From Verrucomicrobiota bacterium (GTDB taxonomy: Bacteria > Verrucomicrobiota > Verrucomicrobiia > Limisphaerales > CANJXF01), in NCBI GenBank assembly GCA_038214755.1, contig JBBQRQ010000091.1, positions 1 through 20,475 on the forward strand: DNA of 20,475 bases. The letters are read 5' to 3'. Below are positions 9,001 to 15,000 of this stretch, piece by piece; positions within the stretch are counted from its first letter, which is position 1, and each line of letters starts with the position of its first letter. The position numbers are program-made.

Positions 9001-12000
9001 ATGACCACGACGGTGAATGCGATTTACGAAGCGGGCAAACTCGTCCTGCCCGGGCCGTTGTCATTGCCCGAAAAATCCCGCGTGCGCGTGACCATCGAAT
9101 CCTCCGATGCCGAACGTGACGGGTGGCTGAAGCATTCCAAAGATTCTTTGATGAAGGTTTGGGACAACGCAGCGGATGACGTCTTCAATGAACTGCTCTC
9201 GAAATGAAGTGGTTCTTCTGCCGATTCCCTTCACGGATTTGACGAGCCGAAAAGTTCGTCCGGCAATTGTGATTGGCCGCAACGGCGCAGACTGTTTTTT
9301 TGTTTCGCCTATTCTCCAATCCGTCGCCACGCGCGTAACTGTTTGGACAACGATCCAAAACCATTTGGAAATCGACTTTCCAAAAATGTGATTTCGCTTG
9401 CGAGTTCTGCTGCGGCTTGAGTCATGCGTTCAGTTTCTAAGTTGATAGACGGCAAATCCACACCATACAGCCGCTGCTTCAACACCCGTTTTGAATAAGG
9501 ATCGGTCTGTTCTTTCAATCCCTTTTCCCAATTTGCTTCGGAAATATCGCTAAATTTTTTGCAAAGCCACCAGGCTTCAATAGCGGGTGAAGCAATTCCA
9601 ACGGCGACACGCAGCGGAGCGCGTCCACCTGTGGATTTTAAAGCGACTCGATTGCGCTCAACAATATCGAGGAGTTCGAGGAGGCGGTTTTTCTGTCCTT
9701 TTTCTGTGACGGAACTGTGATTTGAATCGGCTACTACGATTAGGCCATCGGCTTCGGTTTTATAGTGGAGTGCCTTGATAACAACGCCGAGTACGTTCCG
9801 AACAGAGGGCCAACCGCGTGAACGCAATGACGGGAGATCCACCGCAGTTGTTTTTACATTGAGAACTGCATCCGTGATGATGCGCAATGCTGCTTCATCC
9901 GCCGGAGATTCGCTGAGAATGGCGACGCGCATTTATTTCTATGCAGGAACGCCACCCAGCACTCCGCTGTACCAAACTTCTCCGAGCGGCGCGTCGCCGA
10001 TGATTTCACGGAGTTGTTCGTCGTCTGCGAGACTTTTGAAAGTCGCTGTTCCATCCTTCTGCTTCTCAGCAATGATGATTTGTTCGGGATGCTCTTTGAA
10101 GAGATCAAGAAAGTAAGGCGAGTGCGTCGTCGCAATGATTTGGACGGGCTTGCGCTTCAATCCGAAATCAATGGGAAAGCTCAATCTGTAAAGCGCATCG
10201 CGCACATCACGGAGCAGCCGCGGATGCAATGCACGGTCTGGCTCTTCAAGTCCGATAATAGTTGGGGCGCCCGGTTGGTAAACTATCGCGAGAAGCGCCA
10301 GCGCAATCAGAGTTCCCTCACTCAATTCTGATGCAGGCACATGTAATTTAGTTGCGGATTGCCGGAGCGAAAGTTGTCGATATCCATTTTGGTCATTTTT
10401 AAAAACAATGCTGTCGAATTCGGGAAGCCATCGCTGAAATTCTGCGCGCAGATGATCGTAAGCATCTTCATCCTGATCGCGGAGATGAGTTAAAGCGCCA
10501 GCGAGATTATCTCCGATTTTATTTAATTCTTTTACATTTTGCGCATGGACCGGCTGAGACATTTTGGACGGTTCCAGTGCATACACTCGGACTGATTGGA
10601 AACATTCAGCCATGTTCTTTGAAAGTAATTGCGCAGGGGGAGATGATAAATTAGGAACGTTCAAATTTGTCTTACAAATCCCGCTAGCCACTGTAAATCC
10701 ACCCCATTCAGGCGAACCGCTTGGATTCCACCGCGCGTCTATGGAAAATTCTTTTGCCGTCGATCCAAGTGTACGAAACTCTCGATGTGCAAACTGATTT
10801 GGATTGGCGAGAATTTCAAAAGCCTGCAACACGCTTGTCTTGCCACTGCCATTTGGCCCGACAATAAGGTTGAAGGGACCAAGTTTGAGTTCAGCGTCTT
10901 TTAGCGCTTTGAAATTTTTGAACCGAATACCCGTTATCATGTTTCGATTGTAGCTTTTGGATTCCACGTTGGGAAGCGAGTTTATGCCCTTTGCATCCCA
11001 AACCTTGTCCGCTAAATTTGCGGATTGCCTGATGGCAAAATTCGCGAGTCATGTCGAAGGAATTTATTAGAATTGGCGGAGCGCGTGAGCACAATCTCAA
11101 GAATCTCACGCTCGAAATCCCGCGCGACAAACTGGTGGTCATTACCGGCTTGAGCGGCTCGGGAAAATCGTCGCTCGCCTTCGACACGATTTACGCCGAG
11201 GGCCAGCGCAAATATGTCGAGTCGCTCTCGGCTTACGCGCGTCAGTTCCTCGACCAGATGCAAAAACCGGACGTCGATTTCATCGAGGGACTTTCGCCCG
11301 CCATCGCCATCGAGCAACGCAGTTCCGGCACCGGCCCACGCTCGATCATCGCGACGACGACGGAGATTTACGATTATTTGCGCCTGCTCTTCGCGAACGT
11401 CGGCCAGGCGCATTGTCCCGAAACCGGCGAACCGATCACGCAACAAACCACCAGCGACATCGTGGATAAAATTCTGGCGTTGCCGCCGAAAACGCGCGTG
11501 ATGTTGCTCGCGCCGGTGGTGTCGGATCAGAAGGGAGAATTTCGCGACGTGATCGAACGGCTCGCGCGCGAAGGTTTCGTGCGCGCGCGCGTCGATGGCG
11601 AACTGGTCGAACTCAGCGCGAACGTGCGCGTGAAGATCGACGCGAAACAACGGCACACAATCGAAGCGGTGGTGGATCGGTTGGTGATCGATGAGAAAAT
11701 CCGCGTGCGCTTGAGTGATTCGGTGGAGACGGCGTTGCGCTGGGGAGAAGGGCGCGTAGTGGTTTTGCATCAGCCGCAGGAAGGGGAGTTTAAAGTTCAA
11801 GGTTCAAAGTTCAAAGTGGAAGAGCGTCGTGGGCCAAATGCTGATTCTCTCAACTCTCAACTCTCAACCCTCAACTCCGTTTGGACCGAGACGCTTCATT
11901 CCAATCGCAACTACAGCGCGGCGACGGGGAAAAGTTTTGAGACGCTGACGCCAAAACATTTTTCATTCAACTCACCCTCGGGTGCCTGCCCGGTCTGTCA

Positions 12001-15000
12001 TGGCCTCGGTCAGAAAATGGTTTTCGACGAACAACTCATCGTGCCCAATCAGGAAAAAACTTTGGACAAAGGAGCGGTCCTCCCGTGGCGTCGCGGTCGC
12101 AAGCGGATGATCGCCTACTACAAAAGTTTGCTGCGCGGAGTGGCGAGTCATTTTCAACAAAGTGTCGAAACGCCTTACAAGAATTTGCCGAAAGAATTTA
12201 AAAAAGTTTTGTTGCACGGATCGGGCGAGACGGAAGTTGAATTTACTTTTGTGCGATCGGGGAAGATCAGCCAGGTCCAACGCCCGTTCGAGGGCGTGAT
12301 TCCGAACATGGAACGTCTTTACGCCGAGAGCGAAAGTGAGTTCACGAAAAATCGGTTGAAAAGTTTTATGAACCCGCAGCCGTGCGATGCGTGCGGCGGG
12401 AAGAGATTGAAGCCTGAGATTTTGGCGGTGACGCTTTCCAACGCGGAACTCGGAACGGGGAACGCGGAAGGAAACTTCGCGGATCCGGTTCCGCGTTCCG
12501 CGTTCCGCGTTCCGAGTTTGAAGGTTCCCGGCCTTTCCATCATGGACGTTTGCGCCCTTTCGGTGGACGATGCCGAAGAATTTTTTGCGCAACTCAAGCT
12601 CACTGAGTTCCAGCAAAAAATTGCGAATGAAGTTGTTAAAGAAATTCGTTCGCGGCTCGGCTTCCTGAAAAACGTTGGTCTCGGTTACCTCACGCTCAAT
12701 CGCGAGAGCGGAACGTTGAGCGGCGGCGAAGCGCAACGCATTCGGCTCGCCACCCAAATCGGCGCGGGACTTGTCGGCGTTCTCTACATTCTCGACGAGC
12801 CGAGCGTCGGTTTGCACCAGCGCGATAATGATCGGTTGCTGAAAACTTTGGCCGGGTTGCGCGACCTCGGAAATTCCGTCCTCGTGGTCGAACACGACGA
12901 AGACACCATTCGTCACGCCGATTACATTCTCGACCTCGGCCCCGGCGCGGGCGTGCGCGGTGGGGAAGTTGTGGCTGCTGGAACTCTCGCGGAAATCGAA
13001 GCCAATCCACGTTCGCTGACCGGCCAATATCTCCGAGGTGAATTGTCCATCGCCGTTCCAAAAAAACGCACGAAGCCGTTTGCCGAACGCGGCGCGTTGG
13101 AAATTCTCGGCGCGCGCGAAAATAATTTGCAGAACATCGACGCGCGCATTCCGCTCGGCACGTTGACTTGCGTCACCGGCGTCAGCGGTTCCGGCAAGAG
13201 CACATTGATCGACGACATTTTGCGGCGCGCACTTTTCCGAAAACTTTACGGCTCGAAGGAACAACCCGGCGCGCATCGCGAAATTCGCGGCATCGAAAAT
13301 CTCGACAAAGTCATCGTCATTGATCAAACGCCGATTGGCCGCACACCGCGCAGCAACCCCGCGACTTACACCGGCATGTTCAATCAGATTCGCGATCTCT
13401 TCGCGAAATTGCCGTCGGCAAAAATCCGCGGCTACGGTCCCGGTCGATTCAGTTTCAACGTCAAGGGCGGGCGCTGCGAAAAATGTCAGGGCGATGGCTT
13501 GATCAAAATTGAAATGCATTTTCTGCCACCGGTTTATGTCACGTGCGAAAATTGCAATGGCCGACGTTACAATCGCGAGACGTTGGAAATTAATTTCAAA
13601 GGCATGAACATCGCGGACGTGCTCGACATGACCGTCGATGAAGCTTTGAATTTTTTTCGGGCGGTCCCGAAAATTTTCGATCCTTGTTTGACGCTCGCCG
13701 AAGTTGGACTCGGCTACGTTCATCTCGGTCAATCGGCGACAACGTTGAGTGGCGGCGAAGCGCAACGCATCAAACTCGCCGCCGAACTCAAGCGCAAAGC
13801 CACTGGTCAAACGCTTTACATTCTCGACGAGCCGACGACCGGTTTGCATTTTCACGACGTGGCAAAATTACTCGAAGTGCTTTTCAAACTTCGCAACAGC
13901 GGAAACACCCTTGTTGTGATCGAACACAATCTCGACGTGATAAAAACCGCCGATTGGATTATTGATCTCGGCCCGGAAGGCGGCGCGGGCGGCGGAAAAA
14001 TTGTCGCGCAAGGGACGCCGGAGCAAATCGCGCAAATTTCCGAAAGTTATACCGGCCAATATTTGAATCGAATCCTTGCGCCGAGCCCGTTAAAAAAAAT
14101 TGCGTGAGTGAATCTCAAAATTCTTTTGTCTGATTGTTGTGCGCTATTTTCTGACATTTTTTTTCATGTGGAAAATTTGCTCCGCGCAAATTGCTTTCGC
14201 TGCTTCGAGCGCGGAAACGAAAACCTTCGTTGCCGCGGAAAAATTGCTCGACACGAAACTTTATGGTCTGGCCGAAACGGGTTTCGCGAAATTCGTGGAA
14301 CAGCATCCCGATTCAACGAACAAAGTCGCGGCGGTTCTCCATCAGGCGCAGGCGCGATTTTTTCAAACTAATTACGACGGCACTTTGGAACTTTTGCAGA
14401 AAGGATTCCCGGTTTCCGGGATGTTGGCTGACGAATATCAATTCTGGATTGGCCAAACATTTTTCGGAAAACAAAATTTCCAAGCGGCCGCCGACGCTTT
14501 TTCCGCGGTGGCAAAAAACTTTCCCGGTTCCTCGCGTCAACTCGAAGCGTGTTACCTAGAGGCGCTGGCCGAATCCAAACTGGACCATTGGCCCCGCGTG
14601 ATTGTGTTGCTTCAGACTCCGACCGGAAAATTTCAAGTCGCCGCCAAAACCCAGCCGGACAGCGCATTTTTTGTGGAAGGGAATTTGTTGCTGGCGGAGG
14701 CGTTGTGGAAAGAAAACCGTTTTGCCGAAGCAGAAAAAGTCATCACGCAACTCGATGGGCGCAACCTGACACCGGAGGCGAAATGGCGGCAGATATTTTT
14801 GTTGTGCCGAGTGCAAATGGCGGCGGGCGTTGCGGAAAACGCGCTGCGAACTTCGACCAATCTTTTAGCAGCGGCGCGAGAGACGGGTAATCGCGGGAAT
14901 TACGCGGCCTCGATTCTGTTGCGCGGCGAAATTTTGGCGAAGCTCGGTCGAATGCCGGAAGCCATTCAGGCTTACGAACAAAATCTTTCCGAAGGCAGCG

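Follow-up and report, generated by a model that had tools for sequence, protein, structure and literature searches.

Heptanucleotide repeat inserts in uvrA of a Verrucomicrobiota genome as likely copies of short dispersed repeat modules

The uvrA gene of a Verrucomicrobiota bacterium of soil or sediment (order Limisphaerales; assembly GCA_038214755.1) carries two segments containing tandem 7-nt units, which raises the question of what these segments are and how they came to lie in frame in a housekeeping gene. The window analyzed here is a 20,475-nt stretch of contig JBBQRQ010000091.1. The gene product matches the solved UvrA structures PDB 9gxk and 2r6f (E=0), its ORF contains the Pfam domains UvrA_inter, UvrA_DNA-bind and ABC_tran, and orthologues are present in all 41 relatives searched. 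TRF detects four period-7 arrays in two loops of this protein, both of which are absent from the solved UvrA structures; the alignment to 9gxk is broken exactly at the two residue ranges where the first-pass annotation had placed the inserts (Table 1). Judging from the intact frames, the inserts would be translated.

Table 1. Coordinates of uvrA, its inserts and the other period-7 arrays of the window
Feature	Position	Strand	Basis or context
uvrA, repeat host, 1018 aa	11051-14107	+	open frame without stop
Loop-1 insert, residues 239-290	11765-11920	+	phmmer break, query 238/291 vs 9gxk chain 256/274
(AGTTCAA)x4.4, AAAGTTC family	11787-11817	+	TRF; in-frame peptide
(CTCTCAA)x4.4, AACTCTC family	11847-11877	+	TRF; in-frame peptide
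Loop-2 insert, residues 465-492, 28 aa	12443-12526	+	without counterpart in solved UvrA
Loop-2 hairpin, left arm, 30-nt (AACGCGG)x4.3	12440-12469	+	TRF; in-frame peptide
Loop-2 spacer between arms, 14 nt	12470-12483	+	sequence
Loop-2 right arm, (TCCGCGT)x5.1, complements left arm	12484-12518	+	TRF; in-frame peptide
Intergenic (GTTTAAA)x4.4	3072-3102	.	TRF; between ORFs 2118-3062(-) and 3442-5958(-)
Intergenic inverted pair, (AAATCCG)n 3143-3191 and (TTTCGGA)n 3364-3404	3143-3404	.	TRF

The counterpart of loop 1 in 9gxk is only 17 residues long. The second array of this loop (AACTCTC) is not complementary to the first (AAAGTTC), and no hairpin is predicted in the region 11780-11885 (z +0.84; 160 of 200 shuffles at least as stable). 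The AAAGTTC family comprises 33 TRF rows in the genome, 14 of them in Pfam genes, and the AAAGTTC and AACTCTC pair recurs in a UvrA paralogue and in a CHAT protein. Around loop 2, phmmer aligns query residue 464 with chain residue 447 and query residue 493 with chain residue 446. The region 12437-12524 folds as RNA with -53.7 kcal/mol (z -5.31), a stability equalled by none of 200 shuffles; as DNA, a wider stretch gives a fold of -35.0 kcal/mol. The intergenic inverted pair of the window is a member of the AAATCCG family of palindromic elements, which has 31 pairs in the genome, all of one polarity and with conserved arm imperfections and core. The ORF 3223-4383(+) that overlaps this pair has no Pfam match.

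All genomes compared are MAGs, including the genome under study (hereafter G000). At a TRF score of at least 40, G000 yields 433 rows of period 7, 113 of period 8, 37 of period 9 and 5 of period 6, and a simulated 5-Mb third-order Markov sequence yields no period-7 row. A strict scan (at least 4 copies, at most one break) finds 99 arrays of period 7, 21 of period 8, 19 of period 4 and 3 of period 6, and none of periods 5 and 9-12; periods 7, 8 and 6 rank as in the first-pass annotation, which had counted 50, 12 and 1, with 0 for the other periods, under other criteria. For periods 7/14/21/28, TRF at score 50 or above yields 295 merged arrays, where the first-pass annotation had 219. At least one locus is found on 81 of the 92 contigs of 20 kb or more. 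Among 338 loci, 248 are single-arm and 85 have two arrays, and 4.x copies are seen in 178 of the 433 period-7 rows.

These arrays are discrete modules, dispersed over the genome and amplified separately in each genome. Of the 37 AACGCGG arrays, 18 measure exactly 30 nt, 19 begin with AACGCGG and 28 end with CGCGGAA; of the 79 AACATCG arrays, 29 measure exactly 37 nt and 56 end with CATCGAA. The arrays fall into a few genome-wide families that have fixed ends and share point variants. The imperfect 30-mers reported earlier to recur unchanged at unlinked loci are confirmed, with sets of 4, 3 and 2 identical copies of imperfect arrays. The unit families vary from genome to genome. Searches with the AACGCGG 21-mer (up to 2 mismatches; 0 matches for the reversed-pattern control) give 86 matches in G000, 27 in G003, 24 in G005, 7 in G007 and 4 in G001, and GTCGAGA has 18 in G003, 10 in G007, 1 in G000 and none in G001 or G005. 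CAGAATC occupies 3 loci in G005; G000 has a single match with 2 mismatches, and G001, G003 and G007 have none. CAATCGG is found at 2 loci in G000, with 1 match in G003.

In coding regions, 104 ORFs of 200 aa or more hold 143 arrays located no closer than 40 aa to either end. The Pfam scan covers 103 of these ORFs, one on contig C162 being left out, and gives a match at E<=1e-5 for 75. The Pfam-matched span encloses 74 arrays in 53 ORFs, and 8 further arrays downstream of it bring the total to 58 ORFs; another 29 are located upstream of the first Pfam match, so that the true gene start is uncertain in these cases. Read-through of dozens of arrays in conserved genes is supported, with 74 arrays in 53 genes instead of the 65 in 55 counted originally. 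Pfam genes hold 36 of the 70 AACGCGG and AAAGTTC arrays compared with 9 of the 194 AAATCCG and AACATCG arrays (odds ratio 21.8, p 7e-17). The AACATCG arrays in Pfam genes are all in the polar NIEHRTS orientation (5/5), and S, K, N, R, Q, E and T abound in the array-encoded peptides. Frame keeping is not explained by 7x3=21, as had been proposed, because module lengths are near 4.3 units (30 nt) or 5.3 (37 nt), nor are stop-free units special: units stop-free on both strands make up 590 of 1170 possible classes and 28 of 55 observed ones. Several gene arrays (PheT, Methyltransf_28) take the place of a native loop, and length is not increased.

Sequence comparison shows that new copies have arisen at sites left unoccupied in relatives or in paralogous repeats. 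NadB has 30 aa in G000 where all seven congeners with data have YVG, a net gain of 27 aa in the form of a hairpin that supports de novo insertion of at least one complete hairpin element in the G000 lineage; the insertion is clean, as first described, and present in G000 only. A 29-nt (GATTTAC)x4 module at C5:1128 is missing from the paralogous C10 repeat, a (GAAATCC) module of roughly 32 nt at C64:12531 is missing on C6, and arrays lie within the loops of 3 of 50 GTAG-REP hairpins, the other copies having none.

Across the genus and the order, the same protein loops are filled by differing units or by other palindromes. An array or palindrome is present in at least one congener in 18 of the 21 G000 loops compared (13 genes), with the same unit family in 11 of the reused loops and a different one in at least 14; fresh colonization alone therefore does not fit. 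Most gene sites are old, reused loops, and local slippage contributes as well, as at the second array of UvrD. The UvrA loops are occupied across Limisphaerales, with strong period 7 in 15 and 13 loops compared to 0-1 for periods 5, 6 and 8-10, and carry no arrays in 29 Verrucomicrobiota genomes outside the order. Loop 1 ranges from 36 to 225 nt among 96 orthologues of the order and from 42 to 84 nt in the 29 outside genomes, and loop 2, taken over residues 458-497, measures 36 nt in 25 of these 29. Some arrays seem to have been born locally, such as the second array of UvrD and the CAGAATC array of Mfd in G005, which adjoins the position of GAATCC in the sister genome G001. Insertion junctions are blurred because congener DNA is 14-30% diverged, and the microhomology that module ends share with empty sites, seen in a handful of cases (CAACG...GAATC in HisRS, GAT at C5, and also in UvrD), is suggestive only. 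At Mfd site B and U32 loop 2, one array has been exchanged in place for another of equal length, which simple insertion does not predict. Some unit changes are CpG transitions (AACGCGG to AATGCGG, CTCGAC to CTCAAC) that could recur independently.

We consider the UvrA inserts, with a probability of about 0.6, to be copies of short repeat modules that are non-autonomous, belong to the STRR/heptameric type, resemble Rickettsia palindromic elements (RPE) in behaviour and arise by DNA-templated copying. A module comprises about four tandem 7-nt units (~30 nt, or 37 nt in one family) and occurs singly or in inverted pairs folding into hairpins; it would sit in frame in permissive surface loops of conserved proteins and be read as a polar peptide of 7-aa periodicity. 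The modules would spread without a dedicated transposase, through copying during replication or repair, probably by template switches or by patch repair using short microhomology; hairpin-prone DNA would favour such events, and slippage would then remodel the modules locally. Selection would purge copies that introduce a stop or a frameshift or encode a harmful peptide, which may explain the dominance in genes of 30-nt families without stops on either strand. No mobilizing enzyme or transposition signature was found, and RVT_1 was not found in G000.

An origin of each array in place, by slippage in a floppy hypervariable linker and with no transfer between loci, is unlikely. Period 7 would then reflect the polymerase footprint, as proposed by Mrazek according to the summary in PMC4679880, and copy numbers of 2-26, one-base drift of units between relatives (AACGCGG, AATGCGG, AACTCGG), the persistence of array sites across the genus and the second array of UvrD, where G006 has one CTCGACC and both G007 and G000 have four, all fit such a process. 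It is hard to reconcile, however, with the concentration of 289 of the 433 rows in five unit classes, with the presence of GAA/TTC in 75% of arrays compared with 21% of possible units, or with phase-locked ends and identical imperfect modules at unlinked loci. The two-arm hairpin of NadB has no precursor in any of the seven congeners, the unit that took over in Mfd is also present elsewhere in that genome and is scarce or missing in the congeners searched, and filled and empty paralogous repeats exist.

Movement of MITE- or REP-type elements by a transposase acting in trans, for example an IS200/RAYT-like Y1 enzyme recognizing hairpins, seems still less probable. Only 3 of the 16 Y1_Tnp (PF01797) matches over the cut-off in G000 have a period-7 array within 1.5 kb, about the density expectation, and none of the four largest array families comes within this distance of any of the 16; the one clear REP-flanked Y1_Tnp gene (C10:59766) is accompanied by a 23-nt GTAG REP, not by heptamers. 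The number of these genes does favour the idea, as do the many hairpins, the nesting of AACATCG hairpins in an outer inverted repeat and the sharing of protein loops in NuoL, ThiE and U32 with GTAG-type REPs, but single-arm modules are common, target-site duplication was not seen at NadB or C5, and arrays can replace sequence with no gain in length. A selected function, whether as mRNA hairpins tuning translation or decay, as protein linkers or as phase-variable switches, is very improbable, given that congeners have different units, peptides and even types of element at one and the same loop, that the hosts are unrelated housekeeping enzymes and that the loops are short and empty in all 29 genomes outside the order. 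The conservation of sites across genus and order and the four-unit preference shared with Xanthomonas arrays (PMC4692102) would suit such a function, and so would the strong hairpin in uvrA, although loop 1 of the same protein is not a hairpin. Contig alignment listed no insertion or deletion row, which also speaks against a function, though weakly, since only contigs were compared.

The modules were initially proposed as a new class, but heptameric dispersed arrays are already in print for Xanthomonas and Nostoc (Rehm et al. 2015, PMC4692102). The GGGAATC / GGGGA(C/T)T arrays show a four-unit preference and convergent pairs (70-75 inverted ones in Xanthomonas), and with the cyanobacterial STRR they form a poorly understood heptameric class (Mazel 1990 and Mrazek 2007, as cited in PMC4692102 and PMC4679880). 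Like these, the modules described here have 7-nt units, with a few units recurring at hundreds of loci, a four-unit mode and frequent inverted pairs. The Limisphaerales units are not G-rich, and the four-unit preference is therefore not due to G-quadruplexes. In contrast to the published arrays, which are described as under-represented in coding DNA (PMC4692102), about half of the AACGCGG and AAAGTTC arrays are in recognizable genes, and several unit families coexist and differ between congeners. The comparison with RPE, which are dispersed palindromic repeats in frame in unrelated housekeeping genes (Ogata et al. 2000, 2002, as cited in PMC10969869), is fair for behaviour because of the dispersed families, the NadB gain, the filled and empty repeats, the genome-by-genome amplification and the read-through arrays; both appear to be tolerated extra surface segments and encode no transposase. 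However, RPE are ~150 bp long with a conserved family peptide (PMC10969869), whereas the modules here are 30-90 nt of tandem heptamers, often single-armed, with peptides varying by unit and strand, in another, free-living lineage, with reused sites and exchanged occupants. Heptamer modules in frame in essential genes represent a little-described variant of selfish DNA in protein loops.

REP/REPIN elements with RAYT transposases and GTAG-tagged REPs are also short dispersed hairpin repeats (PMC3116915, PMC3733652). Besides its Y1_Tnp genes, G000 contains a GTAG-type REP family (187 half-sites, 50 hairpins) that shares loops with the heptamer arrays; the heptamer modules differ in being tandem, also single-arm, devoid of the GTAG tag and not flanking Y1_Tnp genes. 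The TAACTGA direct repeats of Beggiatoaceae, Cyanobacteria and Bacteroidetes (MacGregor 2015, PMC4679880), for which stop-codon constraints on strand and position are discussed, similarly consist of a favoured heptamer in many short arrays, but these are mostly intergenic and based on one stop-bearing unit, unlike the many units, inverted pairs and read-through copies described here.

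Tandem arrays of a 7-nt unit are strongly over-represented in the genome under study (G000; 5.1 Mb in 175 contigs, 52.7% GC). TRF reports 433 rows of period 7, as against 5 of period 6, 113 of period 8 and 37 of period 9, and no period-7 row in 5 Mb simulated under a third-order Markov model. A strict scan yields 99 arrays of period 7, 21 of period 8, 19 of period 4, 3 of period 6 and none of periods 5 and 9-12. Because 81 of the 92 contigs of at least 20 kb carry one or more array loci, a binning artefact confined to few contigs does not explain the excess. The period-7 rows belong to 55 unit classes, the top five of which, AAATCCG (115 rows), AACATCG (79), AACGCGG (37), AAAGTTC (33) and AAATCGT (25), account for 289 rows, and they merge into 338 loci (248 single-armed, 85 with two arrays and 5 with three). 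Copy numbers of 4.x are found in 178 of the 433 rows, and the polarity of the inverted pairs is uniform (31/31 for AAATCCG, 15/17 for AACATCG). GAA or TTC is present in 21% of the possible unit classes, 53% of the observed classes and 75% of the arrays. The first-pass annotation had noted that the units are stop-free in the strand used; at the level of classes, an adaptation of this kind has to be dismissed, given that 590 of 1170 possible and 28 of 55 observed classes are stop-free on both strands. The period-8 arrays represent a second excess in this genome, with AACGATTC (23 rows) and AACAATCC (11 rows) among their units.

The arrays are discrete modules. Those of AACGCGG are exactly 30 nt long in 18 of 37 cases and end in CGCGGAA in 28, and those of AACATCG are exactly 37 nt long in 29 of 79 cases and end in CATCGAA in 56. 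Identical imperfect arrays were found four, three and two times, and the commonest imperfect variant occurs in at least four different contexts, namely NuoL, contigs C13 and C63, and a larger repeat on C14 and C51. The AAATCCG pairs form elements of ~130-190 nt, mostly ~170 nt, with conserved arm irregularities and core; each arm consists of two four-unit blocks joined by GAAA, and the ~60-nt conserved core is found in either orientation. The AAATCCG element may be a MITE or an RNA gene; Rfam gave no match in the window, the AAATCCG pair there included. The AACATCG pairs form hairpins of ~75-120 nt, mostly ~85 nt, with 37-nt arms and an AT-rich 12-nt loop, and are mostly flanked by an outer inverted repeat (CCTCCGGCGGGTGCGAA ... 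TTCGCACCCGCCGGAGG), so that hairpin and outer repeat make up a nested composite element. Two loci (L047 and L078) contain long AACATCC/AACATCG arrays of 26 and 20 copies, respectively, that encode TSNIQHP repeats in open reading frames without a Pfam match.

Coordinates of the gene, arrays and repeats discussed in the text (plain numbers are window positions; C, contig of G000; L, extracted gene locus)
Feature	Location	Strand	Context and basis
uvrA, 1018 aa	11051-14107	+	open reading frame; solved structures and Pfam
(AGTTCAA)x4.4	11787-11817		within uvrA; TRF
(CTCTCAA)x4.4	11847-11877		within uvrA; TRF
(AACGCGG)x4.3	12440-12469		within uvrA; TRF
(TCCGCGT)x5.1	12484-12518		within uvrA; TRF
Period-7 array	3072-3102		intergenic; TRF
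Inverted AAATCCG pair	3143-3404		intergenic; one of 31 loci of the AAATCCG element; TRF
AAATCCG element	G000:C11:37001-37173		example from the 31 loci
AACATCG hairpin	G000:C1:41031-41113		example
AACATCG hairpin	G000:C17:33467-33552		example
AACATCC/AACATCG array	C14:5041-5673 (locus holding the array)		L047
AACATCC/AACATCG array	C51:20922-21620 (locus holding the array)		L078
GTAG REP	G000:C1:13121-13168		example
GTAG REP	G000:C103:5204-5272		NuoL, L096
GTAG REP, 23-nt unit twice	17420-17464		
Y1_Tnp gene with GTAG REP on both sides	C10:59766-60002		region G000:C10:59197-60124
Methyltransf_28 gene	G000:C13:57063-58196		L046
MetH gene	G000:C29:2211-7088		L062
Dispersed repeat	L052:14123-14384		G000:C18; DNA search
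Dispersed repeat	L052:16263-16399		G000:C18; DNA search

The uvrA gene of the window carries two pairs of such arrays. Its identity is well supported, with E=0 to 9gxk, 2r6f and 3zqj in a phmmer search against solved structures and with UvrA_inter, UvrA_DNA-bind and ABC_tran domains in the 1018-aa frame. The alignment with 9gxk consists of three blocks; residues 239-290 (loop 1) face 17 residues of the chain and residues 465-492 (loop 2) face none, in agreement with the breaks reported in the first-pass annotation. Placed as they are in alignment gaps relative to solved UvrA, the inserts may be translated and located on the protein surface. The second pair is a real hairpin (12437-12524; -53.7 kcal/mol as RNA, z -5.31, none of 200 shuffles as stable), whereas the first is not (z +0.84; 160 of 200 shuffles fold as well). 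A comparison of the window with four sequencing runs, all of them contigs that break at the arrays, gave no insertion or deletion row. The contigs of the likely source run, X1, stop or begin inside the uvrA arrays, and among the pieces listed none spans 11814-11847. In a contig of a relative (run X3), loop 1 is 73 nt long, compared with 136 nt in the window.

Across the genome, 143 arrays lie at least 40 aa from each end of 104 open reading frames of at least 200 aa. The Pfam scan covered 103 of these frames, one on C162 being left out, and gave a match in 75. Within the Pfam-matched span, there are 74 arrays in 53 frames, all of which stay open, and 8 further arrays downstream of the span bring the total to 58 frames; 29 arrays lie upstream of the first Pfam match, where the true start is uncertain, and the remaining 32 are in frames that were unscanned or have no Pfam support. 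Among the hosts are UvrA, a UvrA paralogue, Mfd, two UvrD-like helicases, NadB, HisRS, ProRS, PheT, CarB, PurL, MetH, LpxB, NuoL, NuoG, GcvP, RibD and TrpD, and the array-encoded peptides have a high content of S, K, N, R, Q, E and T. The unit families differ sharply: 36 of 70 AACGCGG and AAAGTTC arrays (22/37 and 14/33) are in Pfam genes, versus 9 of 194 AAATCCG and AACATCG arrays (4/115 and 5/79; odds ratio 21.8, p 7e-17). The AACATCG arrays in Pfam genes are all in the orientation that gives a polar peptide (5/5) and the AACGCGG arrays are in both (14 and 8). The contrast between families fits a selection filter under which a 30-nt module, being a whole number of codons, would be accepted, and the 37-nt module and the 170-nt element with its core would not be tolerated. 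Arrays seem to cluster in DNA-repair and helicase genes (six in Mfd, four each in UvrA and its paralogue, two each in the UvrD-like genes L052 and L099); these are raw counts, unadjusted for length, and the hosts are long multi-domain proteins. Arrays are also present in SNF2 (L040) and HrpB (L076) loci. The 1626-aa MetH frame has, between two B12-binding domains, a segment matching Zeta_toxin (residues 907-992, E 1.3e-8), an unusual domain insertion.

Twenty-one loops of G000, which hold 30 arrays and belong to 13 genes, were set against their counterparts in up to eight congeners, all genomes compared being MAGs. The comparison shows that permissive loops are reused and their occupants exchanged, with intact frames. 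Only three loops, in NadB and two in a Methyltransf_28 protein, are repeat-free in all congeners. In NadB, 30 aa in G000 stand against YVG in 7 of 7 congeners and, as judged from these alignments, a two-armed AACGCGG/AACTCGG hairpin has been cleanly gained. In the Methyltransf_28 gene, ~70 codons separate an AACGCGG module from its complement; the two occupy different loops on either side of conserved coding sequence, with no added length relative to the congeners. For each of the other 18 loops, one or more congeners carry an array or some other palindrome there; the unit family is the same in a congener in 11 loops, and a different unit or other palindrome is seen in at least 14. For example, the AACGCGG array of UvrD is also found in G005, G006 and G007, and Mfd site C has one unit family in six species. 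Exchange is seen at Mfd site B, where five species carry AAAACTC, G000 carries CAATCGG and G006 carries GCCATTG, each 33-34 nt long, and at Mfd site C, with AACGCGG in G001 and CAGAATC in its sister G005, in an Mfd tree of (G000,((G003,G007),(G006,(G005,G001)))). At the second loop of U32, G000 carries an AAATCGT hairpin, G005, G007 and G008 carry one of AACGCGG with the same length, and G003 and G004 carry none; the RlmN loop shows three unit families. In PheT, an array replaces the native 13-aa loop without any gain in length (AACGCGG in G000, (GTGTCGA)x4 in G006), and the native loop is kept in G005, G003 and G001. Some occupants are not heptameric: UvrA loop 2 of G005 and G009 holds a GC-rich palindrome, and GTAG-type REPs are found in the same loops of NuoL, ThiE and U32. 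G007 contains two hisS copies (L280 and L285), 87% and 84% identical to that of G000 and one of them with an AACGCGG array, which may mean that one copy is a paralogue or that strains are mixed in this assembly (contamination 5%).

The modules are dispersed and amplified genome by genome, and whole modules are gained. At up to two mismatches, 21-mers of AACGCGG have 86 hits in G000, 27 in G003, 24 in G005, 7 in G007 and 4 in G001, and those of GTCGAGA have 1, 18, 0, 10 and 0, respectively; the reversed-pattern controls gave no hits for either unit, and the counts for AAAACTC are uninformative as its reversed control is a rotation of the same array. GTCGAGA/CTCGAC hairpins occupy Mfd site A in both G003 and G007, U32 loop 1 in G003, the second UvrD array in G007 and, in G004, the RlmN loop, all sites at which G000 has other units. 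CAGAATC is found at 3 loci in G005, with none in G001, G003 and G007 and one two-mismatch match in G000, and CAATCGG at 2 loci in G000 with one hit in G003. The units that took the place of older arrays in Mfd are thus each found as a small family with several loci in the genome concerned, which speaks for within-genome copying from locus to locus. BLAST of the junctions of 427 arrays gave junction-spanning hits elsewhere for 55, mostly AACATCG arms nested in a larger repeat, and about five readable filled/empty pairs. In particular, C5:1128 carries a 29-nt (GATTTAC)x4 module that is missing from an otherwise alignable C10 repeat, with GAT common to the junction, and C64:12531 carries a ~32-nt (GAAATCC) module that the C6 copy does not have. 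Arrays also sit in the loops of 3 of 50 GTAG-REP hairpins, one of them inside NuoL, the loops of the remaining copies being ordinary. We saw no target-site duplication at NadB, at C5:1128 compared with C10, at C64:12531 or at the GTAG-REP sites. Two more dispersed repeats of ~110-250 nt at the UvrD-like locus L052 have from five to more than 30 copies among the matches listed in G000, at 74-94% identity.

In UvrA, this behavior extends across the order. Among the UvrA frames from 107 Limisphaerales loci, some genomes being represented twice and L014 coming from G009, loop 1 ranges from 36 to 225 nt (96 loops) and loop 2 from 33 to 231 nt (97 loops). At least 16 of 18 self-matches at period 7 are seen in 15 and 13 loops, respectively, and at periods 5, 6, 8, 9 and 10 in 0 and 0-1. 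More than 20 different units are present in these loops, and many of the loops fold, as DNA, into hairpins with energies between -25 and -38 kcal/mol. In 29 Verrucomicrobiota outside the order, none of the UvrA loops has period 7; loop 2, taken over window residues 458-497, measures 36 nt in 25 of 29, loop 1 has a length of 42-84 nt, and 134 kb of loci contain a single period-7 array. Array densities per 100 kb are 8.5 in G000, 1.5 in G007, 2.2 in G005, 0.8 in G001, 4.0 in G012, 9.8 in G027, 6.5 in G024 and 4.6 in G011, the values for the relatives being rough (61-120 kb sampled per genome, 1-6 arrays each).

Several known classes of repeats have to be considered. Heptameric arrays became known in 1990, and to our knowledge no account of their origin has been accepted since. 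With the STRR/heptameric SSR class, the arrays described here have in common a 7-nt periodicity far above that of neighboring periods, a few units common to many unlinked loci, and a preference for about four units together with convergent inverted pairs. The heptamers of Xanthomonas and Nostoc, GGGAATC and GGGGA(C/T)T, likewise prefer four units, form 70-75 convergent pairs and show under-representation within coding DNA (Rehm et al., 2015, PMC4692102). Judged by Pfam genes, such rarity in coding DNA is true here of AAATCCG and AACATCG but not of AACGCGG and AAAGTTC. TAACTGA arrays have been described as well, in a paper that summarizes a proposal according to which the stretch in contact with the polymerase may be 7 nt (MacGregor, 2015, PMC4679880). 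The first-pass annotation likened the inserts to Rickettsia palindromic elements (RPEs), with which the hairpins of UvrA loop 2, NadB, RlmN and GluQRS share the character of palindromic dispersed repeats in frame in conserved genes. However, RPEs are ~100-150 bp long (PMC10969869), whereas the modules are tandem heptamers of 30-90 nt, often single arms, and because of this different anatomy we do not file them as RPEs. Contingency (phase-variable) SSRs turn a gene on and off within a population through changes in copy number. The arrays described here are short, imperfect and located in housekeeping genes, and the comparison with four runs, made on contigs that break at the arrays, gave no insertion or deletion row. 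In the literature covered, which is partial, we found nothing on heptamer arrays in Verrucomicrobia, including Pedosphaera/Limisphaerales, or on in-frame heptamer inserts in housekeeping genes.

The search for a mobilizing or parent element covered Y1_Tnp and RVT_1. Sixteen matches to PF01797 (Y1_Tnp) are over the cut-off in G000, and a REP/REPIN-RAYT relationship predicts repeats flanking such genes; period-7 arrays lie within 1.5 kb of 3 of the 16, about 4.5 being expected from density, and the four largest families are absent there. A MITE origin is likewise disfavored by the missing duplication at NadB and C5:1128 and by the single-armed state of 248 of 338 loci. No RVT_1 gene was found in G000, and a canonical reverse transcriptase is therefore unlikely; two cas1 genes are present, from which we conclude nothing, and a thought that integration of spacer-sized DNA might be involved was given up. 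Microhomology at HisRS (CAACG...GAATC), C5 (GAT) and UvrD points to template switching or patch repair as the probable way in which modules are copied, using short microhomology at hairpin-prone DNA; they would then be remodeled by slippage, as in the second UvrD array, and filtered by selection.

A bolder possibility, which we consider unlikely, is that a dedicated DNA-templated 'patch-writing' process, distinct from transposition, operates in Limisphaerales and perhaps in all bacteria with heptamer arrays (STRR cyanobacteria, Xanthomonas). Such a process would overwrite ~30 nt of hairpin-prone DNA with a four-unit module from the current repertoire of the genome, its machinery setting both the period of 7 and the four-unit size. 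It would explain why loop position, and often length, is kept despite the exchange of units, why families are genome-specific, why modules land in REP hairpin loops, and why units with no richness in G keep to the four-unit size as well. Irrespective of the mechanism, the dozens of arrays in alignable conserved genes are a natural experiment in which gains, losses and exchanges can be dated and junctions read against orthologues; unit families turn over genome by genome and sites persist, and the four-unit preference does not need G-quadruplexes. The arrays also take selfish DNA in coding genes beyond Rickettsia, which are reduced and intracellular, to bacteria that live free in soil and sediment. 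For genome annotation and structure prediction, they are a warning that the low-complexity loops of Limisphaerales proteins come from repeats.

A separate repeat family of GTAG type (GTAGCCGCCGACGTGAGGAGGCGG ... inverted copy) has 187 half-sites by exact 12-mer and 50 hairpin pairs in G000. GTAG REPs with an open frame are found inside NuoL (G000 and G008) and ThiE (G005 and G006), indicating that classical REPs also occupy coding loops in this genus. A 23-nt GTAG REP (GTAGCGCAGGATTGCAACCTGCC) is present twice in the window and on both sides of a Y1_Tnp gene on C10, and together with that gene has the look of a REP-RAYT pair that has nothing to do with the heptamers.
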